From positions 1 to 43,687 of the forward strand of contig JAGCNQ010000086.1 of the NCBI GenBank assembly GCA_017645845.1: a stretch of 43,687 bases of DNA, written 5' to 3'. The position numbers and the translations under genes were made by a program. The stretch is from Bacteroidaceae bacterium (GTDB taxonomy: Bacteria; Bacteroidota; Bacteroidia; Bacteroidales; Bacteroidaceae). Of this stretch, positions 3,390 to 37,205 are shown in pieces (position 1 is the stretch's first letter; each line of letters begins with the position of its first letter). The notes under the pieces are model-generated. The model ran no database searches. It saw only the letters and a list, made by a program, of their open reading frames with translations, and was not told the DNA's origin.

Positions 3390-4388
3390 TTATCTGAACG
3401 CGTCGCTCAGGAGCTTTACCTCGATGGTGGGGTTGATGTTCTTGTAGAGGATGTTATTAACGACATCGAGGATGGGCATATTGACATGTAAGTGCTTGTT
3501 GATGTCCATCATACACTTCGTTGCGAAATACCCTTCGGCAATCATCTCCATCTCAATCTGAGCGGTCTTGACATTGTACCCCTGCCCTATCATCGTACCG
3601 AAGACACGGTTGCGGCTGAAATTGGAATAGCCAGTTACAAGCAGGTCGCCCGTATAGACGCTGTCAGTGATGTTGCGCTCGATGGGATGTACCGTGTTGA
3701 GGAAACGTTCCATCTCCTGAATTGCATTACTCATGAGGACGGCCTGGAAGTTGTCGCCGTATTTAAGTCCGTGACAGATGCCTGCTGCAATTGCATAGAC
3801 GTTCTTCAGGACGCTGGCGTACTCGATGCCTATGACATCGCTACTGGTCTTGGCCTTTACATAATCGCTGGAAATCATCTTAACAAAGGCTTTTGCCTTC
3901 TCTTGGTCGGCACAGCCAATGGTAAGATAGGTGAGACGATTGAGGGCAACCTCTTCAGCATGACTCGGTCCCCCGAGCACCGCAAGGTTCTCCTCCGGCA
4001 CATTATACATCTGGTTGAAGAAGTCAGAACAGATAAGGTTCTCGTCGGGCACAATACCCTTGATGGCAGTTACGACAAACTTGTCGCGCAGACGGACATG
4101 AAGCCGCTTAAGGTGTCCTTTCAGATAAGGAGAAGGCGTTACGAAGATGAGCGTCTGACAAGCCTCTACCACACGGTTGATATCGCTCTCGAAAGTGATG
4201 CGGTTCACATCGAAATGCACGCTGGTGAGGTAGGCGGGATTGTGACCTAGTCGCTTGAAGTCCTCGATGCGGTCATCCCTGCGAAGGTACCACCAGATGT
4301 GGTCATTCTTCTCGAGCAACATCTTGGCAATTGCCGTTGCCCAGCTGCCACCGCCCAGCACTGCTATGTTTCCTAATTCGTTGTTCAT
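3390..4388 (-). CDS. gpsA: NAD(P)H-dependent glycerol-3-phosphate dehydrogenase
   Basis: 332 aa with the N-terminal Rossmann motif [16 protein letters not shown]. Length and downstream blocks are typical of GpsA. Confidence 0.9.
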
Positions 4389-6318
4389 AATAGAGTAGCC
4401 CCTCTAAATCTCCTCGATGGGAGGCTTTTGAGTCTTTAAGGTTCTTGGCAGGTTCTTGGCCGTCCTCTCCCCTTAGGGAATCTGGAGGGGGGACCGTCCA
4501 TTTAGCAATGAGGTCTTGCGAGGGCTTTTCGACCTCGAGTTTGTATTTCTTGATGATTTCGATAATCTGCTGCTGTATCTTGGCAGGAGCAACGCCTTGC
4601 AGGGTGCTTACCAAATTATAGCCGGCCTTGCGCAGAATGGGGATTATGTCGGCAGGAACGTCTTTCTCGAGGAAGAGCTCGTCCTTGTCGCGTGGAGCCT
4701 TCACTTCGGGCTTCATCTGGGGAAAGAAAAGGACTTCCTGGATGAATGGCTTGCCGGTCATCAACATAGCCAGACGGTCGATGCCGATACCGATGCCGCT
4801 CGTTGGAGGCATACCGTATTGGAGGGCACGCAGGAAGTCGTGGTCGATTACCATTGCCTCGTCGTCGCCCTTATCGGCAAGCTTCATCTGTTCGATGAAA
4901 CGTTCTTCCTGGTCGATGGGGTCGTTCAACTCGGAATAGGCATTGGCCAGTTCCTTGCCGTTCACCATCAGTTCGAAGCGTTCGGTCAGGCCGGGCTTTG
5001 AGCGATGCATCTTCGTCAGCGGGGACATCTCAACGGGATAGTCCGTGATGAAGGTGGGCTGGATGAAGGTGCCCTCGCATGTCTCGCCGAATATCTCATC
5101 GATGAGCTTGCCCTTGCCCATCGTCTCGTCAACTTCTACGCCGCACTTCTTAGCCACCTCGCGCATCTCTTCCTCGCTCATGCCATCGAGGTCGTAGCCT
5201 GTCTTTTCCTTGATGGCATCCAGAATGGGCAGACGGCGGAAAGGAGCCTTGAATGAGATAATCTTGCCGTCAATCTCTGTCTCGGGCTTGCCATTCACAG
5301 CGACGCAAATCTCTTCGAGGAGTTGCTCTGTGAAGGACATCATCCAGTTGTAGTCCTTGTAGCTGACATACAGCTCCATGCAGGTGAACTCGGGATTGTG
5401 GTTCTTGTCCATGCCCTCGTTGCGGAAGTTCTTGCCAATCTCATATACGCCTTCGAAGCCACCCACGATGAGCCGCTTCAGATAAAGCTCGGTGGCAATA
5501 CGCATATACATCGGGATGTTCAGGGCATTGAAATGCGTGATGAAAGGACGGGCCGTTGCGCCTCCGGCAATGGCCTGGAGAGTGGGCGTCTCAACCTCTG
5601 TGTAGCCGTGACGGTCGAAGAAAGCTCGCATGGTCTTGAGGATGACAGCACGCTTCAGGAATGTATCCTTCACGCCATCATTCACGACAAGGTCTACATA
5701 ACGCTGCCGGTAACGAAGTTCAGGGTCGTCGAAAGAGTCATAGACATTTCCTTCAGCATCTGTCTTAACGATGGGCAGAGGACGAAGACTCTTGGATAGC
5801 ACGGTCAGCTCCTGAGCATGAACACTAATCTCACCTGTCTGTGTGCGGAACACATAGCCCTTGATGCCGATGAAGTCACCCAGGTCGAGCAACTTTTTGA
5901 AGACGGTATTGTAGAGGACGACTCCCTCTAAATCTCCCCGAGGGGAGACTTCCGGGCTATTTTCTCTCCCTCGGGGGAGTTGGAGGGGGGCCAGCCCATC
6001 CCTCGTCAAGTACACCTGTATTCTTCCCTTGCTGTCCTGCAACTCGGCAAAAGCAGCTTTTCCCATGATGCGTTTCGACATAATACGGCCAGCGATGCAG
6101 ACATTTCGAGAGTTCTCCGGAGTGGCTGTCTCGCGAATGTCTTTGCCTTCTTCGTCCTTGCCGACAACGGGCAGGTCAACGAAGTTTTCCTTGATTTCAG
6201 TACTGAAAGCATTGGTTGGATATTCTGCTGCGGGATAAGGGTCAATTCCCAGCTCGCGCATCTGTTGCAGGTTGTTGCGACGGATTATCTCCTGCTCGCT
6301 CAGTTCAAGTATGTTCAT
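4303..6318 (-). CDS. lysS: lysine--tRNA ligase (class II), carrying two in-frame repeat-element insertions; 3' end extended 86 nt into gpsA
   Basis: 671-aa ORF. The N-terminus [30 protein letters not shown], the class II core (FRNEGMD..., [12 protein letters not shown]) and the Bacteroidales-type C-terminal extension ([11 protein letters not shown]...KKYKL) are all present. It is about 95 aa longer than I expect for the family, which the elements at 5924-5990 and 4399-4492 explain. Confidence 0.9.
4399..4492 (-). repeat. nested-hairpin palindromic element, copy A (94 bp) at the lysS 3' end / gpsA start junction
   Basis: Plus strand: cccctctaaatctcctcgatgggagg...cctctccccttagggaatctggagggggg. 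The termini CCCCTCTAAATCTCC and GGAATCTGGAGGGGGG are imperfect inverted repeats, and each arm holds a small hairpin. In gene sense it is translated as [31 protein letters not shown]. Confidence 0.8.
5924..5990 (-). repeat. nested-hairpin palindromic element, copy B (about 67 bp) inside lysS
   Basis: Plus strand: ccctctaaatctccccgaggggagacttccgggctattttctctccctcgggggagttggagggggg. It has two CTCCCC-n-GGGGAG hairpins flanked by inverted termini. Translated in gene sense it gives [23 protein letters not shown]. Confidence 0.85.
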
Positions 6319-6365
6319 CGATATTATTTACGATTTGACGATTTAATATTTACAAATTTCGCTTG

Positions 6366-6373
6366 CAAAGGTA
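6366..6373 (-). promoter_or_regulatory. -7 promoter box (TACCTTTG on minus strand) for lysS
   Basis: caaaggta within tttcgcttgcaaaggtacgaatta, 48 nt upstream of the ATG at 6318. Confidence 0.6.
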
Positions 6374-6417
6374 CGAATTATAATTCAAAAAACATAATTA
6401 AGGAATTCAAAATTATA

Positions 6418-7308
6418 TTATTTTGAATCGGAAGGGACTGTTGGCTCTGGCAGGGTGAGCTGCATAAGCTCCTCGAGTGAGCCGTTGAAGATGTTGCAAT
6501 CGACAAAACCCTTGATGCCGGAAACTTTGCCACAGTCGGTATGTTGCCAGAAAGTCCACTTTCCCTTATATTGGAGCTCCTCTACATAGTAATGGGCTAT
6601 CCAATAGGGATAGACATTAAATTCGGGGGTGTTCAGATAGTCAACCTTAAACTTGTACCCGGTATAGAGGATTGGCTTGACACCATATTCCTTTTCGACG
6701 ATATCAAGCCAAATCTTAACGTCGCGACGCAACTGGTCCGGAGTCAGGTCACCTTTCTTCTCAATATCAAGAACTGGTGGCAAGTCACCTGGTTCCAACT
6801 GAGCAATACTCAAATAATAGTCTGCTTGCTTCCTTGGGTTAATTCCAGGAACGAAGAAATGATAAGCGCCTCGTAACAAGTCATTCCGCTTCGCATTGGC
6901 AAAGTTTCTGTTGAAGTTATCATCCAATAGCTTTTCGCCTTCAGTTGCCTTGATAAAGACGAAACTGACGGGAGCGTTTCCGATGGAGGCATTACGCAGT
7001 TTCTCCCAGTTGATACGCCCCTGATAGTGACTGATGTCGATACCTCTTACCTCATAGCCTTCAGGATAAGTCGGTTCGCCATAAATCGCTCGCCAACGGA
7101 AGCTGAAAGGAGTGACGAAGAAGTGATAGAAGAGGCCTATGTAGGCAGCTGCGATGAGTAGGCCGCCAAACCATATCAACCAGGAAGGGAAGCCACGGAA
7201 GAAATGTAAGAAAGAAAGCCCCCTCCCTGCTCCCCCTCTTGGGGAGTGCTTCTTTTTTACTCTCTTAACAGAGGAAGAGCGGGAAGCGGACTTCTTTTTC
7301 ATGTTCAA
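6418..7308 (-). CDS. GH25 family muramidase (lysozyme) with N-terminal basic tail and transmembrane anchor
   Basis: 296 aa. GIDISHYQGRINWEKL...FVFIKATEG...DDNF matches the GH25 signature. A TM helix is present (WLIWFGGLLIAAAYIGLFY). It lies 40 nt downstream of pfp and is probably co-transcribed. Confidence 0.8.
   Translation of the reverse strand: MNMKKKSASRSSSVKRVKKKHSPRGGAGRGLSFLHFFRGFPSWLIWFGGLLIAAAYIGLFYHFFVTPFSFRWRAIYGEPTYPEGYEVRGIDISHYQGRINWEKLRNASIGNAPVSFVFIKATEGEKLLDDNFNRNFANAKRNDLLRGAYHFFVPGINPRKQADYYLSIAQLEPGDLPPVLDIEKKGDLTPDQLRRDVKIWLDIVEKEYGVKPILYTGYKFKVDYLNTPEFNVYPYWIAHYYVEELQYKGKWTFWQHTDCGKVSGIKGFVDCNIFNGSLEELMQLTLPEPTVPSDSK
7219..7246 (-). repeat. solo arm of the palindromic element family, inside the GH25 N-terminal tail
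   Basis: Plus strand: ccccctccctgctccccctcttggggag (CCCCTCC + CTCCCC-ctctt-GGGGAG). In gene sense it encodes SPRGGAGRG. Confidence 0.55.
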
Positions 7309-7348
7309 ATTATAAATTTACACTCCACCAAGGGGGAGTCAGAAGGGG

Positions 7349-9040
7349 CTATGCCTGTTCCAAAGCCAATGTCTTTGTACACTGGTCACACACTTCGCTC
7401 GGTCCCCAGTACTGGATGGGACCTGGATAAACGTAGCAAGTGTTCTTGGCCCACTCTTCACGCTTGCTTGCGAAGAACTTGAAGGGTGCACCGTCAAGCT
7501 CGACGAGAGCCTTACGGATAACGGGCTTCATGGCACCATTACGGCGCTCCATGTTCATCATCATCGTGATGGGCACACCGCCTGCAATCCATTCTGAAGC
7601 AGGAGCGGTCGTGTTCTTGATGACACTCATGTAGCCGGTTTTGCCGTTGGCAATCAGGCGGCTGGCATTGTAACCGAGGCTATAGCAGTAGTCGGCATCA
7701 TAGTTGCTGGGAGCAGCGCAACGTCCTTCGTAACCGAAGAAGTGGTGCTGGGGAGCGAACTTGCCGTTGTACTTGCTTTCCTTCTTCCATGCGTCGAGCT
7801 TCATGGCAACCATGGCGCTGAGCAGCTTCTCTGTCTCGATGAGGCTGACCTGCACGTTGCCGTGGGGGTCACGGTCGAGGCAAAGCTGACGCTCTACGTC
7901 TCTCGGCAGGCTCTCGAGGACTGCAAGGTTCTCAGGAGCAATATGGCTCTTCACGAAGGCCACCTGTGCGTCCTTGCTCTCGAACTCACGGCTCTCACCC
8001 GTTGCAGGGTCTGTGAGGACTTCGTTGAGCTCTGCGATGAGCTTCTTGATGGAAGGAACGAATTCAATCAGACCTTCGGGAATGAGGACAGTACCGAAGT
8101 TGTTGCCTTCTGCGGCGCGGTCAGCCACAATCTTTGCAATGTAGGTCACAACATCGTCAAGGCTCATGGCCTTCTGCTCGACCTCCTCGCTGATGAGGCA
8201 GATATTGGGCTGTGTCTCCAGGGCACACTCCAGGGCAATGTGGCTTGCGCTACGGCCCATCAGCTTGATGAAGTGCCAGTACTTGCGGGCGCTGTTGCAG
8301 TCACGCTGGATGTTGCCAATCAACTCGCTATAAGTCTTGCAGGCAGTATCGAAGCCGAAACTGGTCTCAATCTGCTCGTTCTTCAGGTCGCCGTCGATGG
8401 TCTTGGGACAGCCAATAACCTGTACACCATAGTTCTTGGCAGCATAGTATTCGGCCAGCACACAAGCATTGGTGTTGCTGTCGTCGCCACCGATGATGAC
8501 AAGCGCCTTGATGTCGAGCTTGCGCAGAATCTCAATGCCGCTCTCGAACTGAGCTTCCTTCTCGAGCTTCGTACGGCCGGAGCCGATGATGTCGAAGCCG
8601 CCAGTGTTGCGATAATCGTCAATGAAAGCGTCTGTGAACTCAACATACTTGTGGTCAACGAGACCGCCAGGTCCCATCAGGAAGCCATAGAGCTTGCTGT
8701 TCTTGTTGAGGGACTTAACGCCGTCATAAAGGCCGCTGATGACATTGTGACCACCAGGAGCCTGACCACCGCTAAGAATGATTCCGACGTTAAGACCCTC
8801 TAAATCTCCCTTAAAGGGAGACTTATTGTTCTCCGCCCCTTTAAGGGGAGGTTGGGAGGGGTCCGCCTCAAACGTAATAACAGGCATACCGTAGGTGTTG
8901 GGGAACATAGCCTTGATTTCATCTTGATTGCCAACGCTCTGAGTGGCAGCGCCCTCCACTGCCACAACGGGACCTTGCAAGGCCTTGGGAAGTTTGGGCT
9001 GATAGGCAGCACGAGCCACCTGAAGTGCACTTTTCTTCAT
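7349..9040 (-). CDS. pfp: diphosphate--fructose-6-phosphate 1-phosphotransferase (PPi-PFK) with one in-frame repeat-element insertion
   Basis: 563 aa. GIILSGGQAPGGHNVISG, GGFDIIGSGRTK, IIGGDDSNTNA and PKTIDGDL are canonical PFK/PFP motifs. Length and the N-terminus MKKSALQVARAAYQPKLPKAL match Bacteroidales Pfp. Confidence 0.9.
   Translation of the reverse strand: MKKSALQVARAAYQPKLPKALQGPVVAVEGAATQSVGNQDEIKAMFPNTYGMPVITFEADPSQPPLKGAENNKSPFKGDLEGLNVGIILSGGQAPGGHNVISGLYDGVKSLNKNSKLYGFLMGPGGLVDHKYVEFTDAFIDDYRNTGGFDIIGSGRTKLEKEAQFESGIEILRKLDIKALVIIGGDDSNTNACVLAEYYAAKNYGVQVIGCPKTIDGDLKNEQIETSFGFDTACKTYSELIGNIQRDCNSARKYWHFIKLMGRSASHIALECALETQPNICLISEEVEQKAMSLDDVVTYIAKIVADRAAEGNNFGTVLIPEGLIEFVPSIKKLIAELNEVLTDPATGESREFESKDAQVAFVKSHIAPENLAVLESLPRDVERQLCLDRDPHGNVQVSLIETEKLLSAMVAMKLDAWKKESKYNGKFAPQHHFFGYEGRCAAPSNYDADYCYSLGYNASRLIANGKTGYMSVIKNTTAPASEWIAGGVPITMMMNMERRNGAMKPVIRKALVELDGAPFKFFASKREEWAKNTCYVYPGPIQYWGPSEVCDQCTKTLALEQA
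8796..8861 (-). repeat. nested-hairpin palindromic element, copy C (66 bp) inside pfp
   Basis: Plus strand: ccctctaaatctcccttaaagggagacttattgttctccgcccctttaaggggaggttgggaggggt. Translated in gene sense it gives DPSQPPLKGAENNKSPFKGDLEG, immediately before the conserved NVGIILSGGQAPGGHN block. Confidence 0.85.
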
Positions 9041-9084
9041 GATTCTTGAGTTTATTTATTTATAGGTTTTTAATTTTTCGCGTG

Positions 9085-9092
9085 CAAAGGTA
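9085..9092 (-). promoter_or_regulatory. -7 promoter box (TACCTTTG on minus strand) for pfp
   Basis: caaaggta within tttcgcgtgcaaaggtacgaaaaaaaaa, 45 nt upstream of the ATG at 9040. Confidence 0.6.
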
Positions 9093-9102
9093 CGAAAAAA
9101 AA

Positions 9103-9134
9103 ATGAGGGAATGAAAGAATGAGGGAATGAAAAG
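9103..9134. repeat. tandem 8-mer word array (ATGAGGGA ATGAAAGA ATGAGGGA ATGAAAAG)
   Basis: Read directly from the sequence. It abuts the A-run next to the pfp -7 box. Confidence 0.65.
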
Positions 9135-9193
9135 TGATAATTAAAATATAATTTTATTTTTATTCCCAATAACTCCTACTTGTAAAAAAGGGA

Positions 9194-9223
9194 CCCCCCT
9201 AAATCTCCCCGAGAAGGATGGGT
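9194..9223 (-). repeat. degenerate solo arm of the palindromic element family (intergenic)
   Basis: Plus strand: cccccctaaatctccccgagaaggatggg. It shares the CCCTCTAAATCTCCCCGAGG terminus with copies A-C but no matching second arm was found. Confidence 0.45.
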
Positions 9224-9241
9224 GCGCCAGAGAGACTTCCT

Positions 9242-10204
9242 TCAGACAAAGAGCACTTCACGTCCGTGAAAGAGGAAATTACCTGCCACGACGTATTCCC
9301 TGCAGGTTGGAGAAAACTGGTCTTCTACGGTGACATGTTCATGCCCTGCCAGGATGCAACGCAAAAGAGGTTCGCCATGCAGATATTGGATGAAGTCACG
9401 GGTCACAGGGTCCTCCAACTGACATTTGTAGTCACCCGTCGGCTTTGGAACCTCACGGTAGGTTAACTGCTCCTTATCGGTCCAGAAGCGTACAGCAGCC
9501 CGCCATATATTATCAGTAAAGAACGGAACGTGCATACATAATACGATGGGCAGTCCTTTGCCGACTTCCTCATGGAACAGTCTGACCTGAGCTTCTGTCA
9601 CGTAACCGTAAACATCATCGAGCGTGACGAAGTTGACGCCGTGAACTACCTGACTATTTAAGGAGATATTGAAGGGGTAAACGCTTTGAAGTCTGTTGCG
9701 CGTATTATCCTTATATGCTTCACTCTTTTCCTCCTTGGGGTCGCTAAGCCACATGTCCGTACTGAACTCGTGATTGCCCATGGAACCGATGACGCCCTCG
9801 CCAAAGTATTTCTTCACAAGGTCGAAATTTGCTTCACTCTGCCAGTCTATAAGGTCCCCTGTATGGACCACGTAGTCCACATGCTGCTTTGCCCAGGCCA
9901 GTGCATCGCGCAACGCCTCTTCCTGACGCCCTCCAAAGGTAGTGGTGCGGTTCTTGTGTAACTGCTGCTTCTTCTCGTTCTCATGGTCATAGGCTGCTGT
10001 GAGATGGGTGTCTGAGATGTGTAAGACAGAAAAGGGATGCTCCAATCCTATTTCCACCGTCGCATAGCTTAATGACAGTCGTTCGTATTTTCCCCGTTTG
10101 GGAAACAAAGCGGGATTGTCATCTGCCAGCGCTGGCAGCTTGGAGGTTGCTATGAGTATTCCCGCTCCTGCAACACGTTTAATGAATGTTCTTCTATCTG
10201 CCAT
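9242..10204 (-). CDS. metallophosphoesterase (calcineurin-like) with Tat-type signal peptide
   Basis: MADRRTFIKRVAGAGILIATSKLPALA is a twin-arginine leader. ISDTHL, GDLID, GNHE and GHEH are phosphoesterase metal-binding motifs. The start was moved from 10261 to the ATG at 10204 because the exact -7 box (10232-10239) lies inside the longer ORF. Confidence 0.75.
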   Translation of the reverse strand: MADRRTFIKRVAGAGILIATSKLPALADDNPALFPKRGKYERLSLSYATVEIGLEHPFSVLHISDTHLTAAYDHENEKKQQLHKNRTTTFGGRQEEALRDALAWAKQHVDYVVHTGDLIDWQSEANFDLVKKYFGEGVIGSMGNHEFSTDMWLSDPKEEKSEAYKDNTRNRLQSVYPFNISLNSQVVHGVNFVTLDDVYGYVTEAQVRLFHEEVGKGLPIVLCMHVPFFTDNIWRAAVRFWTDKEQLTYREVPKPTGDYKCQLEDPVTRDFIQYLHGEPLLRCILAGHEHVTVEDQFSPTCREYVVAGNFLFHGREVLFV

Positions 10205-10231
10205 GGTATCAATGTTTATCGGTTCTGCGTA

Positions 10232-10239
10232 CAAAGATA
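10232..10239 (-). promoter_or_regulatory. -7 promoter box (TATCTTTG on minus strand) for the metallophosphoesterase
   Basis: caaagata in ctgcgtacaaagatacgaataat, 28 nt upstream of the ATG at 10204. Confidence 0.55.
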
Positions 10240-10342
10240 CGAATAATAATTCACAATCCATAATACTTCGCTTCTTTTCTCAAGAATGAAGGGGCAGTTT
10301 GGACAAAAGTTTCATTTTTTTTCTAAATCATGTAGTTTTTCG

Positions 10343-11989: not shown

Positions 11990-14900
11990 CTATTTTTTAA
12001 TGCGTTTTACTCCATTATCAATATAAATTCCTTTCTGAGGCTTGCCTGGGAGTTTCCGGCCTGAGAGGTCGTAATATTGGTGGGTACCGTCGCCATCGAT
12101 GGTGTGGATGACGGGGTTGATGCCCGTACCGTCCTCGTTTATGTCGCCCACATACTCGTCGGGCAATTTCTCCCAATCGGGATTGACGACATCCTCGCCA
12201 GCTGGCAGGTACTTGAACTTGGTTTCATAAGCATACGGGCCTTTGTACTCCAACGGAACGAAGTAGGACCGGAATTGCGGAATGTAGCTTGCACGATGGC
12301 TCTCTGTATCATTGTTAAAGGGTTTCCACTTACCGTCCTTCGTCGAAAGCCCGAAAGCGTGCATCTGGGTGCTCTCATCGTTGTCGATGACGCGGAAGGT
12401 GCCGCGCCACCAACCTACCAGGTCGTCAGGTTCTCCCCATGTCTCGAGGCTGGAGCTGACGATACTCTCCTCAACGTGCTCGTTGGGGTGTGCCAGCATC
12501 TTCACATTATCGGCATTGAGATTGAGGCTTCCATTCTCCACTACCAGCAGACAAGGCGTGCCGGCATTGATTACGGGTGCATCACCGATGAATACAAACT
12601 CAAGGTCTTCATTAACGGCAGCCAGTTGGTACAAACGGATCTGGCCTGCATCGAACTGCTCCCACAGGTCCTTCGTGTACGGCAGACAGACGGTGAAGGC
12701 GCAGCTGGTCCATGTTCCGTCGCCATTGTCGTTGGCCGCGAACTGACGGTCGTAGGCGACGTTCACCATATGGCCTCCGTATCGGTTCAGGGTCTCGCTG
12801 TTGTCGGCGAGGTCTGTCAGGCTGACATCGGCAATACCCCACAGGAGTCCTGGGTTGTCGATGCCACCGTCAACATGGGCGTAGGAAGCGGAGTTGGTAT
12901 TGTAATCGTAGCGGGTTCCGTTCTGGCCTACAAGGGAACTTGCATGGTTGAACATGTAGGCGGAAGTCTCCACCTTGTCCATCGTCCAGCCCTCGCCCAC
13001 GGTGATGGTGGTCAGCGCATAGTCGTTCTCGAACATCATCCGGACATTGGTCACGTTGCCGGTGTCGAAGCTGGTCAGGTTCAGGTCTTTCAACGACTGG
13101 CAATTCTTGAACATTCCGTTCATGTTGGTGACTTGAGTGGTGTTGAAGTTGGACACGTCGATGTCGGCCAGGTTTCGGCATTGGAAGAACATGTACCGCA
13201 TGTTTGTTACAGACCGCGTGTCGAAACTATCGATGTTCAGTTCCTGCAGGTTGGCGCAGTTGCTGAACATGTACTCCATATTCGTAACCTGCGATGTCTG
13301 CCATCCGTATGGGTTGAGCCACTCGAGTGCGGTGCAGCCACTGAACATGTAACGCATGTCTGTGACATTGCTGGTGTCGAAGAATCCCAGGATTATCTCT
13401 TTGAGCGAAGAGCAGCTCGCGAACATGGAGACCATGGTGGTCACTTCGGATGTGCGGAGGTTATGCAGACCATCGATGTCTGTCAGGTTCCTAAAGTTGC
13501 GGAACCATCCGTAGCAGCTGGTGGGGCGAACGCGTCCGAAGCTCTCGTGGAACACCACATGCTCTACCTGGCTGTTCACCTGCTTCCATCCGGGCGAATC
13601 GGCTCCTGTCATCAGGACGTCAGCACCCTTCCATAGCATCGTCACGGCCTGTCCATCGTAGCTGTCTCCGACATTCACGCGGCTTTCGGGAACGGTGAAG
13701 TGAAGCGTCTTGGTGTCCTCGCACCAGAAGGCGTAGGCCACGTCGAAGTACCCTGTCAGGGGTTCGATGGCGTCATAGTCGGTACCATCTGTGTAGTTGA
13801 CGCAGACGCTGCTGAAGTCGTCGGTTACCTCATTGTCCATCACGAAGTAGGCCTGGAATCCGGGCAGGATGTAGCTCTCGGCACGGCTGTCGGCCACGAA
13901 GAGCTTCGCCTGGTCGCTCTCGGAGAGGGTGACGGGCATGTAGCTGCCATAGAGTGCCACGCCGTTGTAGTCAGCACTATCGGCCTTGGCGGTGGTGATG
14001 TCTATGTCTGAGAAGGTCATCTCGTCGGGAGCACCGTTGGTCCATCTGATGATGGCAGGTTTTCCGGCGGGAGCTGCCTCACTTTCATTGCAGAAGAGCG
14101 TCAGGGTGCCGTTCTCTTTCTTGGCACCGGCAAACTCCAACAGCTCGCCACTCCATTTCTCTGCCATCTGTGCGGTCATCTCGAAGGGCAGACAAAGTGC
14201 CTGCCAACCGTTAGCCGCTGTCGTGGTGCGGTTCAGTACCACCTGCTGGGCTGTAAAGTCATACAAGGGTGCGAAGCCATACCGGTCATCAAGTATCAGC
14301 TTGTTGCAGATGCCGCCCGAAACCACGTTGTCGGCAGGCTGGGCTTTGCCGGCAGGCAGATAGACGATGGCCCCTTCGTTCAGACCGAAGAAGGGCGTGT
14401 CGGGTGTGGTACGGTCTATGGTGAGGGGTTTCAGTCCCAAGCAGCGAGTCATGTCGAGTGCCGTAATCTCGTGTCCCACGCTGCTGAAGGCATTGGCATC
14501 AACAGAGCGGACAGCCAGAGGAACTTCATCGCCGTCTATGTTGACGGTAATGCTGTCGGCAACCTCAACGATGCCGCCCTCACCTGTGTAGCGGGCAAGG
14601 GTAACATCTTCAAAGTCAACAATCTTATTGTAAAGGACAGAATAGGAGGCGTACTCGTCATCTACTTCCATATACTCGGAGGGATTGTCCATGCTGATAT
14701 CCACCTCCACATCGGTCACGCCGACGCTGGTAGCCTCAAGGGTAAAGTATGCCTTCATGGCGTGTATGCAGCTGTCGGCGCCCATTGAATTGCGAATCGT
14801 CATCAGCATCTTATCGCTATTCCTTAAGTCGAGCGATGCATAGCTGGGATGGAAGGTGACATGTCCGTCGCTGCTGGTCTCCTCGACCAGTGAGTTGTCG

Positions 14901-19099: not shown

Positions 19100-19136
19100 A
19101 AAACTGATTTTATTTATATTATTTATATTTTGCTCG

Positions 19137-19144
19137 CAAATATA
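19137..19144 (-). promoter_or_regulatory. -7 promoter box (TATATTTG on minus strand) for the giant gene
   Basis: caaatata in tgctcgcaaatatacgcaaattt, 38 nt upstream of the ATG at 19099. Confidence 0.55.
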
Positions 19145-19392
19145 CGCAAATTTCATGGAAAAATAATATCATCTTTGAAAAAAAAAGAAAAGCATCATTT
19201 TCTTTCAACACATCCACGCAAAAACGCCATCAGCAGCACGAAGTTTGAAAGCGTTACAATTGTAACAGTTTTGTTTCAAAGCGTGAATAGCAAGGTGGGG
19301 GACAATTGTCCCCCACCCTTTTCGGGAGAAGGTCACAAAAAGGGTCTGATTTTACCTCTTAAACATTTTAACATTTATTTTTGGCGTTTTCG

Positions 19393-19423: not shown

Positions 19424-19468
19424 ACCTTCGGACGGGAGTGCCGCCGCCCGGCAGGGAGCAAAACCGAT

Positions 19469-19508
19469 GAAAATTAAAAAATTAAAAAATTGAAAAATTA
19501 TAAAATTA
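19469..19508. repeat. tandem 8-mer word array (GAAAATTA AAAAATTA AAAAATTG AAAAATTA TAAAATTA)
   Basis: Read directly from the sequence. It lies inside the predicted 5' UTR of the 19544 gene. Confidence 0.7.
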
Positions 19509-19543
19509 AATTGAAGCCTTTTCACTCTTTATATATCTGACTT

Positions 19544-19807: not shown

Positions 19808-19848
19808 AAAGTTGAAAAGTTGAAAAGTTAAAAAGTAAAAAAATAAAA
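19806..19848. repeat. tandem 8-mer word array (GAAAAGTT x3, decaying to AAAAAGT AAAAAAAT AAAA)
   Basis: Read directly from the sequence. It fills the whole spacer between the 19807 stop and the ATG at 19849. Confidence 0.7.
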
Positions 19849-26150: not shown

Positions 26151-26822
26151 ATGAATATTGTATCAAGAATAAACAATATCAAACAGACCCTGCCCGCAGG
26201 AGTCCGGCTTGTTGCTGTCAGCAAATACCATCCTGCCTCACTCATTCAGGAAGCCTACGATGGTGGTCAGCGCATCTTCGGAGAGAGCCATGTCCAGGAG
26301 TTAGTCGCGAAGTACGAGGTGCTGCCCAAGGATATTGAATGGCACTTCATCGGCCATCTGCAAACGAACAAGGTCAAGTACATTGCTCCCTTCATCAGCC
26401 TTATTCATGCCGTCGATTCTGAACATTTGATTAAGGAGATTGACAAGCAGGCGAAGCGTTGCCAGCGCACTATTCCCATTCTCTTGGAAGTGCATGTTGC
26501 CAAGGAAGAGACGAAGTACGGCTTCACCCCAGACGAATTGCTTGCCTTTATGGAGAGCGGCACCTGGCAACAATATACAAACGTCAGCATTGCCGGCCTG
26601 ATGTGTATGGCGACGAACACAGACGACGAAACACTCATTGCCTCCGAGTTCGAAAGGGCTTATCAGTTGTTCAAGCAAATCAAGGAGAAGTTCTCTCCTG
26701 TTACGGGGGAGCCAGATGGGATTTGTTCTTGGGGCATGAGCAACGACTACCTTATTGCTGTTGCTCACGGCAGCAATATGGTTCGAATCGGCAGCCTGAT
26801 ATTCGGTGAAAGAGTATATTAG
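26151..26822 (+). CDS. yggS: YggS-family pyridoxal-phosphate homeostasis protein
   Basis: 223 aa. LVAVSKYHP contains the PLP lysine context. HFIGHLQTNKVKY and MSNDYLIAVAHGSNMVRIGSLIFG are canonical YggS/PROSC blocks. Confidence 0.85.
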   Translation: MNIVSRINNIKQTLPAGVRLVAVSKYHPASLIQEAYDGGQRIFGESHVQELVAKYEVLPKDIEWHFIGHLQTNKVKYIAPFISLIHAVDSEHLIKEIDKQAKRCQRTIPILLEVHVAKEETKYGFTPDELLAFMESGTWQQYTNVSIAGLMCMATNTDDETLIASEFERAYQLFKQIKEKFSPVTGEPDGICSWGMSNDYLIAVAHGSNMVRIGSLIFGERVY

Positions 26823-26875: not shown

Positions 26876-28549
26876 TTATAGCTCCAGATTCTGATAGAGG
26901 AATCGTTTGATACTCTTTTTAGGCGTCTTCTCGAACTCATTCTCCATCACCTTGATGCTGGATAGCTGGGCATAGGCGGGAAGGTTCGGATTGATTTCCT
27001 TGCGGTTCTGCTCCATGATGCTCTCGACGTCTGCTGCTGAGAGCCGTAACTTCTTCATTTGTTCCTGATCGGGATATACAAGGCCAACGAGCTTGTCACC
27101 CTTTTGAACCACCAGACATTCGTTGACAAGCATCATATTGCTGAGTTTGTCCTCAATTTCCTCTGGATAGATATTTTGTCCGTTAGCACCGAGCAGCATA
27201 TTCTTGCTGCGACCCTTAATGTAGAGGTTACCATTCTTGATTATGCCGAGGTCACCTGTATGATACCAGCCTTCCTTATCGATGGCTTCTTTTGTGGCCT
27301 CCTCATTCTTGTAGTAGCCAAGCATCACGTTCAAACCTCTCGTCAGTATCTCGCCAGCAATATTCTCTGGATCTGGGCTGTCGATGCGCAGTTCCTGATG
27401 GATGACACACTTACCGCAACTGCCTACTTCCTGATCCTTCCAATCATTGTAGGCAATGATGGGAGCGCACTCCGTGGCACCATAGCCAACAGTATAGCGG
27501 AAACCAATATCGTGAAGCAACTGCTCTATCTCCTGATTGAGAGCGGCGCCACCAATGATGACCTCATAGAAATTGCCGCCCAGAGCCTCTGTCAGTCCGT
27601 CGCATATTCTCTTGCGGATGCGGTCGCCAATAATCGGAACATTCATCAGCATCCTCACCTTCGAGTCTTGAATCCTGGGTAGAACAGCCTTGCGCACTAC
27701 CTTCTCGATGATGAGAGGAACCACGACAAGAACAACAGGCTTCACTTCAGCCAAAGCCTTCATCAGGATTGTGGGAGAAGCCATCTTTGTGAGGAAATTG
27801 ACGTGTGCACCCACCATGAACTCATAGGTGAACTCGAAAGCCATACCATACGTATGAGCCATCGGTAACATACTGAGCACCTCGTCGCCCGTCTTGACTG
27901 CATGCCCCATCACATGATGGGCAAAGTCGTAGTTGCTCCAGAGTGCGCGATATGGAATCATCACACCCTTCGAGTTGCTGGTAGTTCCACTAGTATAATT
28001 CAGTACAGCGAGTTCATCGGGCTGGTCCTCATAGTATTTGAGATACTTCGGCAGGAAACGGCTGGGGAACTTTTCACCAAAGAGGCGGTTCAGATTTTCA
28101 CGTGCATAACCAAGCTTCTCATTACGGCACACCAACAGACTATAGTCGGTCAGCGATATGATACCCTGCAAGTCGGGCATTTCGTCTGAATTAAGTGCCG
28201 GCCAAACCTTGTCGCCCACAAAAAGGAGCTTCGAATCAGAGTGGTTTACGATATCGTGTACCTGTGAGGGGTGGAACTCATGCAGGATAGGCACAGCCAC
28301 AGCACCGTAGGTCAAGATGCTCATGAAGGCAGAACCCCATCGACTCAAATTACGTCCGCAGAGCGCTATCTTGTCACCTGGTTTGATGCCAGCATTTTCA
28401 AACAGGATATGCATCTTCTCGATGATTCGAGCCACATCCTTATATTGTAAGGTAAAGTCTCCATAGTCCGACATCGAATTCATGAACCAATGATCCTGAA
28501 TGCTCTGCCGAATCAGCTGGTTATACGAAGGTACTTCCGTTGGTTTCAT
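26876..28549 (-). CDS. long-chain-fatty-acid--CoA ligase (AMP-binding enzyme family)
   Basis: The YTSGTTSNSKGV AMP-binding motif and the GYGATE and GWYHTGDLG blocks are present. The start was set at the ATG at 28549 (MKPTEVPSYNQL) because the -7 box at 28574-28581 lies inside the longer ORF. Confidence 0.85.
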   Translation of the reverse strand: MKPTEVPSYNQLIRQSIQDHWFMNSMSDYGDFTLQYKDVARIIEKMHILFENAGIKPGDKIALCGRNLSRWGSAFMSILTYGAVAVPILHEFHPSQVHDIVNHSDSKLLFVGDKVWPALNSDEMPDLQGIISLTDYSLLVCRNEKLGYARENLNRLFGEKFPSRFLPKYLKYYEDQPDELAVLNYTSGTTSNSKGVMIPYRALWSNYDFAHHVMGHAVKTGDEVLSMLPMAHTYGMAFEFTYEFMVGAHVNFLTKMASPTILMKALAEVKPVVLVVVPLIIEKVVRKAVLPRIQDSKVRMLMNVPIIGDRIRKRICDGLTEALGGNFYEVIIGGAALNQEIEQLLHDIGFRYTVGYGATECAPIIAYNDWKDQEVGSCGKCVIHQELRIDSPDPENIAGEILTRGLNVMLGYYKNEEATKEAIDKEGWYHTGDLGIIKNGNLYIKGRSKNMLLGANGQNIYPEEIEDKLSNMMLVNECLVVQKGDKLVGLVYPDQEQMKKLRLSAADVESIMEQNRKEINPNLPAYAQLSSIKVMENEFEKTPKKSIKRFLYQNLEL

Positions 28550-28573
28550 TTGCACATTTTTACAAATTTTGTG

Positions 28574-28581
28574 CAAAGGTA
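28574..28581 (-). promoter_or_regulatory. -7 promoter box (TACCTTTG on minus strand) for the acyl-CoA ligase gene
   Basis: caaaggta within ttttgtgcaaaggtacgataaat, 25 nt upstream of the ATG at 28549. Confidence 0.55.
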
Positions 28582-28854
28582 CGATAAATATGGTATATTC
28601 CAAACAATTACGGTATAAATTTTCAAAAAAGGGAGATATTCATAAAAAATAGCGTGGATTTTTGCAGAAAAAATTATGCAAAAACACGGATTTGAGGTTT
28701 ATTTATCGTAATCAACACGAGTAAAGGCTATTTACTTACATTTCGAAAGAAATATCCCTAGTTTTTCATCAGCTCTTCCTTTTTTTGAGGACTACGAATC
28801 ATTACATCAATTACGTCAGCATAAAGCCTTCCATTGAAATAAATGGGCTTAAAT

Positions 28855-30980: not shown

Positions 30981-32018
30981 ATGAGTAAACTCTTGAAGCC
31001 TGCTGACTACAAGGCTTTGCTGAACTTGAATCAGACAGAGCAGGCAATTAAGAATATCAAGGACTTCTTTTTAGGCAGCCTCAGTACAGAACTGAGGTTG
31101 CGCCGTGTCACAGCCCCTCTTTTCGTGCTTCGCGGATTGGGCATTAACGACGACCTCAACGGTGTGGAGCGTCCTGTCAGCTTCCCCATCAAGGATATGA
31201 ACGATGCTGTGGCCGAGGTAGTACACTCTCTTGCAAAATGGAAGCGTGTCACGCTTGCTGAATACAAGACGCAGCCAGGCTTCGGTATTGTGACCGATAT
31301 GAACGCCATCCGAGCTGATGAGGAGTTGGACAACATCCACAGCCTCTATGTCGATCAATGGGACTGGGAACGTGTGCTCCTGGCCGAGAACCGCAACGAA
31401 GCCTATTTGCGCCGCATCGTCAGCAAGATTTACAGCGCCATCCTGCGCACAGAGTTTTACATCTGCGAGACTTATTCCCAACTCAAACCCTTCCTGCCTG
31501 AAGATATCCATTTTATCCACAGCGAGGAACTGTTGCAGATGTACCCCGACAAGACGGCAAAGGAGCGCGAACACCTCATCTGCCAGAAATACGGAGCCGT
31601 ATTTATAATAGGTATAGGTGGTAAACTCAGCAATGGGAAAGTGCATGATATGCGCGCTCCCGACTATGATGACTGGAGCACCCCGAACGAAAGCGGTTTC
31701 TATGGACTCAACGGTGACCTGCTCGTCTGGTATCCTCTGCTCAATCGCAGCATCGAACTGAGTTCTATGGGTATCCGTGTGGATAAGGAAGCACTTCTCC
31801 GACAGCTTGCTCTTCAGGGTAAGGAAGAACGCAAAGAACTATACTTCCACCAGCGTCTTCTTGGAGACACACTACCTCTGACCATCGGTGGAGGTATCGG
31901 ACAAAGCCGTCTTTGTATGGTGCTCCTGCACAAAGCACATATTGGTGAAACACAGGCCAGTATCTGGCCAAACGAGATGCGAAAAGAATGCAGAGAAGCA
32001 GGAATGCCGTTGATTTAG
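30981..32018 (+). CDS. asnA: aspartate--ammonia ligase (asparagine synthetase A)
   Basis: 345 aa. The blocks TEQAIKNIKDFF, VTAPLFV, DEELDNIHSLYVDQWDWE, GGGIGQSRLCMVLL and ASIWP are typical of AsnA. Confidence 0.9.
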   Translation: MSKLLKPADYKALLNLNQTEQAIKNIKDFFLGSLSTELRLRRVTAPLFVLRGLGINDDLNGVERPVSFPIKDMNDAVAEVVHSLAKWKRVTLAEYKTQPGFGIVTDMNAIRADEELDNIHSLYVDQWDWERVLLAENRNEAYLRRIVSKIYSAILRTEFYICETYSQLKPFLPEDIHFIHSEELLQMYPDKTAKEREHLICQKYGAVFIIGIGGKLSNGKVHDMRAPDYDDWSTPNESGFYGLNGDLLVWYPLLNRSIELSSMGIRVDKEALLRQLALQGKEERKELYFHQRLLGDTLPLTIGGGIGQSRLCMVLLHKAHIGETQASIWPNEMRKECREAGMPLI

Positions 32019-34054
32019 TTGTTTGGCGACAGTTTGCACGCAAGGGCTATAGTGCTTTTGCGAGCCTTCATAAGCAGATTTGTATCGGTATCCTTAGTGT
32101 TGCCACATTAAGTGTGGCGGCGAGAACCCCATCTGGCTCCCCCCTAGAGAGGAAGGAACATAAAGTCTCTTCTCTAAGGGGAGATTTTGAAGGGGATGGA
32201 GATATAGAAGAATCTTTGGCGGAGTTAACCGTGAGCGGCACGATGGCTCCGCTCTCGCAGTTGCAGGCAGCACGAATTGTCTGTGTGCTCACCCGTCAGG
32301 AAATAGAACAAGCGGCGGCGCAGAGTCTTAATGACATCTTGAAATTAGTTACCGGCGTGGATGTCCGGCAGCGCGGTGGCTTTGGTATTCAGACGGACAT
32401 CAGCATCGATGGCGGCACATTCGAACAGGTCACGATTCTGCTCAACGGCATCGACATCAGCAATCCCCAAATAGGACATCTTTCAGCAGACTTCCCCGTC
32501 AGCATCAGCGACATAGAACGCATTGAGGTGCTCGAAGGTGCAGCAAGTCGTGTGTATAGCGGACAGAGCTTCGGCGGGGCCATCAACATCATTACACGGC
32601 ACGACCGCGAGCAAAGCATCGAGTTTGAGGGCAGAGGCGGTTCCTTCGGTACTGCGGAGGGTGAGGCTCGCATCTCACTCACAACTAAACGTTTCAGTAA
32701 CCGCATCAGCGGAGGAGGTGGCAGAAGCGATGGCGGAACGCTCAACAGTTCCTGGCAAAAGGGACAGCTCTACTATCAGGGTGATTATGAAGATGATGCT
32801 TTGCGCCTCGACTGGCAGTTCGGTTTTTCGAAGAAGAGCTACGGGGCCAACACTTTTTACAGCGCCAACTATCCCGACCAATACGAGCGTAACCAACGCC
32901 TCATGACCAGCATCAGCGCAGAGACAAAGGGCAAATTTCACTTCACGCCTCAGGTCTTCTGGCAGCGCTCACACGATAACTTTGAGTTAGTTTGCGGCAC
33001 TTCTTTCGGTGAGAATTTCCACAGGACAGACGTTTATGGTCTCAAGGCTGGCGGATACGTCAACTGGTCTTTCGGCAAAACTGCCGTCTCTGCACTGCTT
33101 AGACACGAAGGCATCCTCAGCACCAATCTCGGCAAAGACACGCCTCCAGAAGGGAATTTGGGAGTCTATACCCGCAGCGACAACCGCACAACGGTTTCCT
33201 TTGGCCTCGAGCACAACATTCTCTTGAAGCGTTGGACGATTTCAGCCGGATTGATGGCAAGTATGACATCCAGCATCGACCATCTTTTTCGCTTCTATCC
33301 GGGCATCGATATCGCTTATCGTCCCGCATCAAACTGGAAAGTATTGCTCTCCTACAACAAAGGGTTCCGTTTGCCGTCTTTCACAGAGCTATATTATAAG
33401 AGCCCGACGCATGAAGGAAACCGAGACTTGAAACCCGAGCACAACCACTCCCTATCGCTCGGAACAGAGTACAGACGGTGTGGCATCGAGGGCAGCATCC
33501 GAGGCTTTTATCATCGTGGAACACAAATGATTGACTGGGTAATGTATTCGGCGGATGATATCTACCATACTGCGGCTTTTGACCTCGATAATGTGGGTGT
33601 TCAGGTTCATGGAAAAGTTTCACCTTCCGAGCTTCTCGGCCATGATACATGGGTATATTCTCTCTCTGCTGGCTATACCTTTATCCACCAGAACAAGCAC
33701 GATGCCGAGGGTGTCGTCAAGAGCAATGCCCAAATGGAGTATTTGCGGCACAAGTTTGTCGCAAGCCTGACGCACCGCATTATAAGCCGGCTCTTAATGA
33801 GTTGGAATTTCCGTTGGCAGGAACGGGTGGGCTGTTATCTGAGCGACGGAAAACTAGTCCCCTATCATCCTTATGCGATGCTGGATGCCAAGTTGCTATG
33901 GGAAGCAACGCGATACCAACTTTATGTCCAGGCAACCAACATCACCAATCACAGCTACTACGACCTCGCAGCAGTCCCCCAGCCCGGCATCTGGATAATG
34001 GCAGGCGCACGCCTAAAGATTTTCAAGAAATCACGAGCCACCCCATCCTTTTAA
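31988..34054 (+). CDS. TonB-dependent outer-membrane receptor with an in-frame repeat-element insertion after the signal region
   Basis: 688 aa. It has plug motifs (SLNDILKLVTGVDVRQRGGFGIQTDISIDGG, IERIEVLEGAASRVYS), beta-barrel repeats and a terminal aromatic region. The only in-frame start upstream of the conserved RKGYSAF..L.VATL leader is the ATG at 31988, which overlaps asnA by 31 nt. Confidence 0.8.
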   Translation: MQRSRNAVDLVVWRQFARKGYSAFASLHKQICIGILSVATLSVAARTPSGSPLERKEHKVSSLRGDFEGDGDIEESLAELTVSGTMAPLSQLQAARIVCVLTRQEIEQAAAQSLNDILKLVTGVDVRQRGGFGIQTDISIDGGTFEQVTILLNGIDISNPQIGHLSADFPVSISDIERIEVLEGAASRVYSGQSFGGAINIITRHDREQSIEFEGRGGSFGTAEGEARISLTTKRFSNRISGGGGRSDGGTLNSSWQKGQLYYQGDYEDDALRLDWQFGFSKKSYGANTFYSANYPDQYERNQRLMTSISAETKGKFHFTPQVFWQRSHDNFELVCGTSFGENFHRTDVYGLKAGGYVNWSFGKTAVSALLRHEGILSTNLGKDTPPEGNLGVYTRSDNRTTVSFGLEHNILLKRWTISAGLMASMTSSIDHLFRFYPGIDIAYRPASNWKVLLSYNKGFRLPSFTELYYKSPTHEGNRDLKPEHNHSLSLGTEYRRCGIEGSIRGFYHRGTQMIDWVMYSADDIYHTAAFDLDNVGVQVHGKVSPSELLGHDTWVYSLSAGYTFIHQNKHDAEGVVKSNAQMEYLRHKFVASLTHRIISRLLMSWNFRWQERVGCYLSDGKLVPYHPYAMLDAKLLWEATRYQLYVQATNITNHSYYDLAAVPQPGIWIMAGARLKIFKKSRATPSF
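32127..32195 (+). repeat. nested-hairpin palindromic element, copy F (69 bp) inside the TonB-dependent receptor gene
   Basis: Plus strand: ccccatctggctcccccctagagaggaaggaacataaagtctcttctctaaggggagattttgaagggg. It has the same architecture as copies A-C and the same orientation relative to the host gene. It is translated as PSGSPLERKEHKVSSLRGDFEG. Confidence 0.75.
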
Positions 34055-37165: not shown

Positions 37166-37205
37166 GGGTCGGGACCCCCTCCCGACCCTCCCCGAGGGGA
37201 GGAGA
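37166..37205 (+). repeat. solo 5' arm of the palindromic element family plus adjacent 9-bp hairpin (intergenic)
   Basis: GGGTCGGGA-ccccc-TCCCGACCC is followed by CTCCCCGAGGGGAGGAGAAAGG. Compare the gene-sense 5' arm of copy B: CCCCCCTCCAACTCCCCCGAGGGAGAGAAAA. Confidence 0.55.

Follow-up and report, generated by a model that had tools for sequence, protein, structure and literature searches.

An inverted pair of triplex-motif repeat units read in frame within lysS of a rumen Prevotella-like bacterium

Introduction

Repeats with a class II triplex architecture are known from Escherichia coli, cyanobacteria and other organisms. The names in use are BoxC (for E. coli), PIT (potential intrastrand triplex; Hoyne et al. 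2000) and, for the G/C-rich motif, TM (Holder et al. 2015, PMC4666352). The E. coli consensus, TMECO, is CCCTCNCCC-N3-6-GGGNGAGGG-N3-GGGNGAGGG, that is, a pyrimidine (Y) arm, a purine (R) arm and a reverse-Hoogsteen tail; the isolated TM strand forms a triplex in vitro, with a melting temperature of 78-82 °C, as confirmed by nuclear magnetic resonance (PMC4666352). All 23 copies of strain MG1655 are intergenic, five sites hold inverted pairs, and the loci are unusually variable between strains. The PIT/TM elements show neither promoter nor terminator activity and have no link to transposons (PMC4666352). The text of that paper mentions neither Bacteroidetes nor intragenic copies, and its supplement gives per-genome totals only. 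Palindromic repeats that are read in frame have been described separately, as the Rickettsia palindromic elements (RPEs) and as occasional intragenic REPs, some of them in tRNA synthetase genes (PMC3733652, PMC10969869). Here, a palindromic element located within lysS, the gene for lysine--tRNA ligase, was analysed in a 43,687-nt stretch of DNA, hereafter the window (contig JAGCNQ010000086.1 of assembly GCA_017645845.1, Bacteroidaceae bacterium). The element is an inverted pair of triplex-type units and a copy of a dispersed DNA repeat, which is probably translated passively.

Results

The element occupies a loop of the anticodon-binding domain of LysS

An initial annotation of the window, made from its letters, had placed a palindromic element inside the anticodon-binding part of LysS. 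This location was borne out by Pfam, which found the class II core (PF00152) of the protein together with its anticodon domain, an OB fold (PF01336) whose match is broken in two at the position of the element. The + strand of the 67-bp element (5924-5990) reads CCCTCTAAATCTCCCCGAGGGGAGAC...TCTCCCTCGGGGGAGTTGGAGGGGGG. The sense strand, GCC CCC CTC CAA CTC CCC CGA GGG AGA GAA AAT AGC CCG GAA GTC TCC CCT CGG GGA GAT TTA GAG GGA, is translated without a stop codon as residues A110-G132, and the frame is thus intact, as had been claimed. Alignment with the solved LysRS 3a74 revealed ~24 additional residues between ...YLTRD and LYNTVFKK, and together with the Pfam match placed the insert in the loop that leads from beta3 to the helix in the OB fold, a location that the annotation had raised as a possibility. 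In the AlphaFold2 model, residues 108-131 are coil with a pLDDT of about 30, and values of 75-85 apply to the OB strands (residues 72-105 and 149-174) and to the helix (residues 132-146); the translated Pro/Gly/charged segment of ~23 residues is predicted to be disordered. The figure of about 23 added residues given by the annotation is correct for what is encoded, but the net gain over the closest alleles lacking the insert is 18, since the element replaces the native loop (NGEDTT; RDALANGEDTTLYN in those alleles).

Contigs from four metagenome runs, each from a different study, carried the element intact, with 0-2 differences and zero gaps; it is therefore real rather than an artefact of assembly. 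The lysS locus was present in bovine-gut metagenomes of at least eight studies, and the host is a rumen Prevotella-like bacterium. An exact look-up of the 671-residue LysS returned no identical database protein, probably because of a private 11-nt duplication in a second copy of the element, at the 3′-end of lysS, which makes this gene the host of two copies. The missing database match and the odd 62-residue tail with which LysS overlaps gpsA are what an assembly chimera, a decaying lysS pseudogene or a removed intein- or intron-like segment might be expected to leave. Such explanations are hardly credible, however, given the four runs from four studies: the tail is accounted for by the private duplication in the other copy, every column invariant across 45 LysS sequences is retained in the window LysS, the orthologous insert is kept open in related lineages, and 67-72 nt falls far below the size of an intein or of a group I/II intron. 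Rfam gave nothing at gathering thresholds over the whole window, and a permissive scan of 4300-9400 returned chance-level matches only. The sole contig obtained from two metatranscriptomes spans 5610-5789, outside the element.

Each unit carries a tail that mirrors its purine arm

The element consists of two ~25-nt units in inverted orientation around a variable spacer, which makes the whole palindromic. In each unit a pyrimidine (C-rich) arm is joined by a loop of 3-5 nt to a purine arm; TT(T) follows, and then a tail of purines and T in which the purine arm is mirrored. Units are ~25-38 nt long and whole elements 67-92 bp. Written out, the 25-27-nt units read GTCTCCCCTCGGGGAGATTTAGAGGG and CTCCCTCGGGGGAGTTGGAGGGGGG, the unit consensus is ...AGAGGGGGCT / ...GGGTGGGGCT, and the dominant form in Bacteroidota is TCTCCCC/GGGGAGA-TTT-AGAGGGG. 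Units of the family in the window have perfect mirror tails (e.g. GGGAGA-TTT-AGAGGG, GGGGGAG-TTG-GAGGGGG, AGGGAGA-TTT-AGAGGGT and GGGGAG-cagg-GAGGGG), from which the degenerate unit at 7323-7348 deviates.

The two perfect 6-bp hairpins reported by the initial annotation could be upheld for the first (TCTCCC/GGGAGA, loop CGAG), while the second has five perfect pairs (CTCCC/GGGAG). Class II calls for a Watson-Crick hairpin in which the 3′ arm is homopurine and at least 6 nt long and the loop measures 1-6 nt. Both units have such a hairpin, perfect in unit 1 and, in unit 2, with a stem of 5-6 bp and at most one mismatch. Both halves have the mirroring 3′ domain with G.G-C and A.A-T / T.A-T triads. 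A mirror purine tail beside a Watson-Crick hairpin is, to judge from the sequence, the arrangement of an antiparallel purine-motif triplex. The mirror tail and its triplex motif had escaped the annotation, as had the dispersed repeat itself, the second copy at the 3′-end of lysS and the pairing of the two halves.

Such units are more frequent than chance would allow. The core 16-mer occurs four times in the window at ≤3 mismatches (0.31 expected), and six strict triplex-type units were counted, both halves of the lysS element among them, compared with 0.12 ± 0.41 in 100 dinucleotide shuffles. Covariation between arm and tail was measured in 191 distinct units from the window and from fetched loci, none of them selected by the search pattern. 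A perfect mirror tail was present in 60% of these, compared with 19% when tails were exchanged among units (1000 shuffles, none above 27%). For the 137 asymmetric arms, the mirror model was favoured over a direct repeat by 95 to 5, and a direct-repeat tail was rejected. The triads in the set were G.G (658), A.A (91) and T.A (78), which by their base identities are those allowed in a purine-motif triplex. A G-quadruplex was likewise rejected: the commonest unit, GGGGAGA-TTT-AGAGGGG, has just two G-tracts, and its A/T positions covary as mirror images.

The LysS loop is occupied differently in close relatives

The 120 closest LysS sequences (82-96% identical to that of the window) were compared; the closest relatives are rumen or gut metagenome-assembled genomes (MAGs) named Bacteroidaceae bacterium. 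The native loop of 9-10 residues (ALANGEDTT and variants) was found in 86 sequences; universal presence of the segment, which the annotation had named as a refutation, is thereby disproved. Another 28 have P/G-rich inserts of at least nine different kinds, and the remaining six an unrelated tandem-repeat insert. One LysRS loop therefore holds at least nine different inserts among relatives at least 82% identical. At the DNA level, the P/G-rich inserts of five alleles were all inverted pairs of triplex units in place of the native loop; their boundaries vary by a few codons, and no target-site duplication was found at any of the five. The different loop states are dispersed over the LysS tree: P0004, the relative nearest to the window (96% identical), has no insert, and the clade P0072/P0073, only about 85% identical, carries nearly the insert of the window. 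This scatter could reflect repeated gain, loss, or conversion among units.

The tandem-repeat insert, in P0003 (L005/L006, 6300-6400), P0001, P0005, P0018, P0053 and P0080, consists of GGACAAC and GGTCAATGTTCAAT repeats and encodes DNGQQNGQCSMVNVQ; since six relatives carry it, the loop accepts insertions of more than one origin. In the LysS homologue P0088 (687 residues), ~111 residues of the catalytic domain are duplicated internally, probably through an assembly or gene-call artefact.

Other copies in the window are found in loops, linkers, termini and spacers

Repeat families D7/D12 and an nhmmer profile identified the repeat at no fewer than eight sites of the window (Table 1). At least four copies besides that under study lie inside open reading frames (ORFs), and all the intragenic copies, whose host genes were assigned by Pfam, fall in loops, linkers or termini.

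Table 1. Units and copies of the repeat in the window, with the lysS gene
Feature	Position	Strand	Support or remark
lysS, class IIb lysine--tRNA ligase, 671 residues as in the window	4303..6318	-	ORF, Pfam, PDB matches, homologues
Palindromic element (inverted pair of triplex-motif units)	5924..5990	-	In frame in lysS; LysS A110-G132
Unit 1, TCTCCC-ctcg-GGGAGA-TTT-AGAGGG	5924..5948	- (G-rich strand = sense)	Perfect 6-bp stem, perfect mirror tail
Spacer between units	5949..5965	.	Variable, unrelated to spacers of other copies; alignment of copies
Unit 2, CTCCC-tcgg-GGGAG-TT-G-GAGGGGG	5966..5990	+ (G-rich strand)	Strict scan, register 5964-5988: one stem mismatch, perfect mirror
Second pair, partly decayed, 3′-end of lysS	4399..4492 (nhmmer 4392-4491)	-	At the stop-codon position of relatives
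AGGTTCTTGGC x2 (tandem duplication of 11 nt) within the 3′ copy's spacer	4439..4460	.	Private to the window
Pair in PPi-phosphofructokinase gene pfp (ORF 7349..9040)	8796..8861 (nhmmer 8789-8869)	-	Read in frame as DPSQPPLKGAENNKSPFKGDLEG
Degenerate pair in TonB-dependent receptor (ORF 31988..34054)	32122..32197 (nhmmer 32124-32195)	+	nhmmer E 2.4e-6, translation, Pfam
Single unit, N-terminal tail of GH25 muramidase (ORF 6418..7308)	7220..7246	-	...HSPRGGAGRG...
Degenerate single unit, 40-nt spacer 3′ of pfp stop	7323..7348	+	One stem and one mirror mismatch; read by eye
Decayed unit, intergenic, upstream of pfp	9193..9222	+	Repeat families D7/D12, nhmmer
Strict single unit CCTCCC-ctcg-GGGAGG-gtcg-GGAGGG, intergenic	37177..37202 (nhmmer 37167-37231)	-	

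The copy in pfp lies in the loop ahead of the first strand of the PFK domain and adds ~13 residues relative to 1kzh. That in the TonB-dependent receptor falls in the linker that joins signal peptide and plug domain; as it is inverted and on the + strand, it has the same orientation relative to its host gene, and it was fixed, at single-copy depth, in four runs. A possible decayed partner of the intergenic unit at 37177-37202 lies near 37259-37285. Two or three of the six frames are open in each window copy, and the frame shared by four copies was rejected as a sign of insertion preference because each orientation has one stop-free frame. All three terminator-like matches in 4300-9400 were units antisense to their host genes. 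Neither a transposase nor a RAYT (Y1 transposase) was found by Pfam among the window genes scanned. An apparent copy at 26702-26723 (repeat I19) was rejected as a chance match in the ordinary coding sequence of YggS.

The 3′ copy in lysS owes its peculiarities to the 11-nt duplication. The additional 11 nt were missing in all four metagenome runs; without them, LysS has 623 residues, with its stop codon within the spacer of the element. By shifting the frame, the duplication gives rise to the 62-residue tail, whose coding sequence runs 86 nt into gpsA from the start of the latter (4388), and it is only through the duplication that this copy shares the common frame. The tail is private to the window, since all four runs lack the duplication, and is either a rare variant or an assembly error; the duplication illustrates the instability of these loci. 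L001 and L129 lack the 3′ element, and there a TTG start of gpsA and the stop codon of lysS share an overlap of 13 nt. The gpsA of the window begins with ATG (MNNELGN...) directly after the element; as this start differs from that of relatives without the element, the lysS-gpsA junction has also been reshaped by it.

The repeat is dispersed in Bacteroidota and is often translated in rumen and gut copies

A search for CCCTCTAAATCTCC-N5-9-GGAG in one genome per species returned at least 120 loci. Among the matches listed, nearly all were in Bacteroidota, namely Mucilaginibacter, Pedobacter, Sphingobacterium, Chitinophagaceae, Saprospiraceae, Flavobacteriaceae, Prolixibacteraceae, Paludibacteraceae, Petrimonas and Prevotella, including Xylanibacter brevis ATCC 19188. 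Only two others appeared there: the cyanobacterium Hyella patelloides (L033), which has a complete inverted pair (CCCTCTAAATCTCCCAAATTTGGGAGAC...CCCCCCAGAATTGGGGGGTTAGGGGGG), in line with reports of TM-rich cyanobacteria, and a doubtful 'Acinetobacter' MAG (L120), whose match is devoid of unit structure and looks like chance or mis-binning. Again among the matches listed, the typical copy in the phylum was an inverted pair about an AT-rich spacer, 95 of 113 copies outside gut Bacteroidales lay in no long open frame, and divergent spacers were avoided (5 of 69 copies, against a background of 17.5%).

A nucleic-acid signal that serves the host, and that would act in lysS too, might be sought in these extragenic units. 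It could pause or terminate transcription, act as a hairpin that stabilises mRNA or is targeted by RNases, pause replication, or bind a nucleoid protein; ribosome pausing and RNase targeting at the hairpins, as suggested by the initial annotation, belong here as well. The fold and exact 14-27-mers are conserved across the phylum, many extragenic units elsewhere in Bacteroidota have a hairpin and then a T-run downstream of genes, and a strong mRNA hairpin is predicted. A signal of this kind is nevertheless unlikely, since the element is missing from the site in 86 of the 120 close relatives and the occupied alleles differ widely, intragenic copies are spread over dozens of unrelated genes, and the E. 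coli PIT elements showed neither promoter nor terminator activity (PMC4666352). The terminator-like side is, moreover, preferentially antisense, a preference that points to avoidance and not to use.

In four metagenomes, the pfp unit (8797-8823) was present at 45-80 times the depth of its single-copy flanks, and many different sequences began at about 8792-8794 and at about 8824-8830. Given this depth and these differing flanks, the conserved dispersed entity is a single ~32-38-nt unit with varying partners and spacers. The high copy number and the variety of flanks would also suit a true non-autonomous transposon of the REP/REPIN type or a MITE (miniature inverted-repeat transposable element), its folded unit being inserted by a HUH/Y1 (RAYT-like) enzyme that acts in trans on single-stranded DNA. 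The inverted doublets of short palindromic units without target-site duplication, the patchy presence on the LysS tree with a near-identical insert in the ~85%-identical clade, and the depletion from divergent spacers, as in REPs (PMC3733652), point the same way. Against this, the hairpins have no GTAG or CGTC tag beside them, spacers are unrelated and partners vary, unlike REPINs and MITEs, which move whole, the window genes scanned include no transposase, and the E. coli TM repeats are not associated with mobile elements (PMC4666352). A transposon of this type, which would be compatible with passive translation of the copy in lysS, is a possibility that we regard as less probable than its absence.

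A scan of metagenomes with the exact 27-mer of the pfp unit returned at least 120 loci, most with record names referring to rumen or gut. An open frame of at least 450 nt across the copy was counted as read-through. Among the matches listed, 66 of 132 rumen or gut copies were read through, 46 of them as SPFKGDLEG, as in the window, and 20 as PSKSPLKGD, one frame being used per orientation because the other two contain stop codons. As a single frame per orientation is stop-free, its constancy reflects a stop-codon filter and not an insertion preference. The host sample comprised the longest ORF at each of 46 sites; these ORFs matched 58 Pfam families, including IleRS (4), MutS/MutS2 (6), Mur ligases (5), MetH (3), ETF (3), Dus, GH3, CobQ and ABC transporters.

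The recurrence of …SP(R/F)(G/K)GDLEG in several proteins, and its retention in the species across four samples, might be taken to mean that the peptide is an adaptive module; a surface loop, RGD-like or rich in Pro, might for instance open a new interaction to LysRS and other proteins. This is very improbable: conservation is at the level of DNA, the two orientations yielding the unrelated SPFKGDLEG and PSKSPLKGD; arm and tail covary by nucleic-acid rules; the units are mostly extragenic in most other Bacteroidota sampled; and the hosts are cytoplasmic enzymes of unrelated function, the LysS segment itself being predicted to be disordered.

Other repeats in the window

The TTTCGCGTGCAAAGGTACGAA motif (families D2/D4) occurs at 261-293, 6357-6389, 9076-9108, 10223-10255, 28571-28588 and 30610-30642, closely upstream of genes on the minus strand, lysS and pfp among them. 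In reverse complement the motif includes TAccTTTG, a sequence similar to the Bacteroidetes -7 promoter consensus TAnnTTTG, and we take it to be, probably, an ordinary promoter. AT-rich arrays with an 8-nt period (AAAATTAA / AAAGTTGA; family D1), each ending in GAAGCCTTTTCACTCTTT, are found between genes at 19462-19538, 19808-19868 and 20385-20461. A minus-strand ORF of 2388 residues (11990-19156) has an internal repeat with a 78-nt period at 13169-13366 (family D5). A 22-nt inverted repeat with 95% complementarity (ATATTAATAAAAAACCTCTCCC / GGAAGAGGTTTTTTATTAATAT; 26826-26873), between the convergent genes 26151..26822 and 26876..28603, looks from its sequence like a bidirectional intrinsic terminator.

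Discussion

The most satisfactory account of these results is that the lysS element is, with good probability, one copy of a dispersed DNA repeat, passively translated in the manner of RPEs wherever a stop-free frame and a permissive loop allow; it assigns neither a mode of spread nor a function. It draws on the identity of the repeat and the triplex-type covariation of its units, on its in-frame position, its absence from most relatives and its recovery from independent samples, and on the translation of other copies in many housekeeping genes. The entity selected or propagated would be a DNA (or single-stranded DNA) structure, the peptide being a by-product. Selection would act on nucleic acid rather than on peptide because arm and tail covary by pairing rules, the two orientations give unrelated peptides, and units elsewhere in the phylum are mostly extragenic. 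In lysS, a pair of units would have replaced the native loop between beta3 and the helix, to be transcribed and translated with the gene. To survive within a gene, a copy would need the single stop-free frame of its orientation to be in phase, as well as a permissive loop, linker or terminus. The hairpin and T-run would preferably lie antisense, which would avoid a terminator-like action in the mRNA; their exclusion from mRNA is suggested by the terminator-like units being antisense to their hosts. Arrival and turnover may proceed by a DNA-level process that leaves no target-site duplication, candidates being single-strand transposition by some enzyme and recombination or gene conversion among units. 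From such turnover, many different pairs at the same loop in close relatives would follow.

Several observations weigh against this account. No pair of filled and empty alleles with otherwise identical flanks was found among the LysS relatives, and for this reason insertion is not cleanly separable from in situ evolution or conversion, and the exact ends of the element are unproven. The window genes that were scanned yielded no mobilising enzyme. Triplex formation is deduced from covariation alone, and in vivo footprinting with dimethyl sulphate did not detect a stable triplex in E. coli (PMC4666352). The two halves can alternatively pair as one long hairpin (-42.8 kcal/mol, z -2.97 as RNA; -21.1 kcal/mol, z -2.7 as DNA). 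The identical 14-27-mers common to several Bacteroidota classes, the 46:20 bias in orientation and the depletion from divergent spacers would each be compatible with a host function. Finally, the AlphaFold2 model is poor outside the OB domain (mean pLDDT 51), and the apparent placement in a surface loop depends mainly on the alignment to the solved LysRS.

A broader proposal, which we put forward tentatively and think less likely to hold than to fail, is that the triplex units form an active, mobile or self-propagating system of the whole phylum, recognised as a single-stranded, three-stranded fold, which would have colonised coding sequences on a large scale in rumen and gut Prevotella-like bacteria and would continually remodel surface loops of essential enzymes. 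For about 30 years, neither a function nor a mode of spread has been assigned to BoxC/PIT/TM repeats, which have been described as strictly intergenic. The Bacteroidota units represent a sequence-distinct branch of the same structural class, and their covariation offers an evolutionary argument that the fold, or whatever reads it, matters in vivo. The coding copies amount to an extensive natural collection of loop insertions that enzymes tolerate, LysRS, IleRS, MutS, Mur ligases and MetH among them. Such elements account for the uneven lengths and peculiar P/G-rich segments of Prevotella proteins, cause metagenome assemblies to break at the edges of units, and can give rise to frameshifted tails like the one at the 3′-end of lysS in the window. 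Were the units mobile, the question would become how a triplex-shaped end is recognised and copied.

Comparison with described repeat families

REP, BIME and REPIN elements (PMC3733652; Bertels and Rainey 2011) are, like the present repeat, short palindromic units with frequent inverted doublets, mostly downstream of genes, and have occasional intragenic copies, including some in tRNA synthetase and DNA-repair genes (PMC3733652). The Bacteroidota units differ in having a mirror tail, which REPs lack, and no GTAG or CGTC tag: neither is in the unit consensus, and the CGTC beside the lysS copy is not common to other copies. Their intragenic fraction is far higher and their spacer is not conserved, whereas a REPIN is an inverted doublet that moves as one with a conserved spacer; here, spacers were unrelated and partners varied. 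The ends are inverted-repeat-like, as in a MITE, but there was no duplication at the five LysS alleles and the centres are not conserved.

The homopurine/homopyrimidine mirror repeats of H-DNA provide another point of comparison, GGGGAGA-TTT-AGAGGGG being a purine mirror repeat and hence of the kind that H-DNA requires. Unlike in H-DNA, one strand could supply all three strands of the triplex because the complementary pyrimidine arm lies on that same strand, and the repeat is a dispersed, conserved family rather than a simple tract.

In architecture, the closest match is BoxC/PIT/TM: a Y arm, a loop, an R arm, a short spacer and a reverse-Hoogsteen tail, with G.G-C and A/T.A-T triads. Both are G/C-rich and multicopy, often form inverted pairs at hypervariable loci and have no known transposase; the over-representation expected of class II was evident in the window (6 units against 0.12), in the 45-80-fold flank depth and in the at least 120 loci of each of the two collections. 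The TMECO consensus had no exact match in the window or in any of the loci, and 14 loose matches (≤3 substitutions) all fell outside the window. Given this mismatch, the units share the structural class of the E. coli repeats but form a sequence family apart from them. When a BoxC-like unit from Bacteroidota was compared with E. coli genomes by BLAST, no match was returned, which says little for so short a query of low complexity. A further difference is that the E. coli copies are always intergenic, while about half of the gut-type copies sampled here are inside genes.

It is in this last respect that the RPEs (Ogata et al. 2000, via PMC10969869 and PMC3733652) come closest. According to these sources, RPEs are palindromes inserted in frame into numerous housekeeping genes of unrelated function, including those for aminoacyl-tRNA synthetases; they are tolerated in apparent surface segments, with a peptide that is the by-product of selfish or neutral DNA. 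The spread of the present repeat over 58 Pfam families agrees with this. As described there, RPEs measure about 100-150 bp, are confined to Rickettsia and relatives, and are not presented as triplex motifs. The present element, compared by description, is shorter (67-92 bp), modular (two ~25-nt units and a free spacer) and found in free-living and gut Bacteroidota. In behaviour, then, the lysS element resembles an RPE, a tolerated in-frame palindrome, and in structure it is, by the layout of its units, a member of the BoxC/PIT/TM class.

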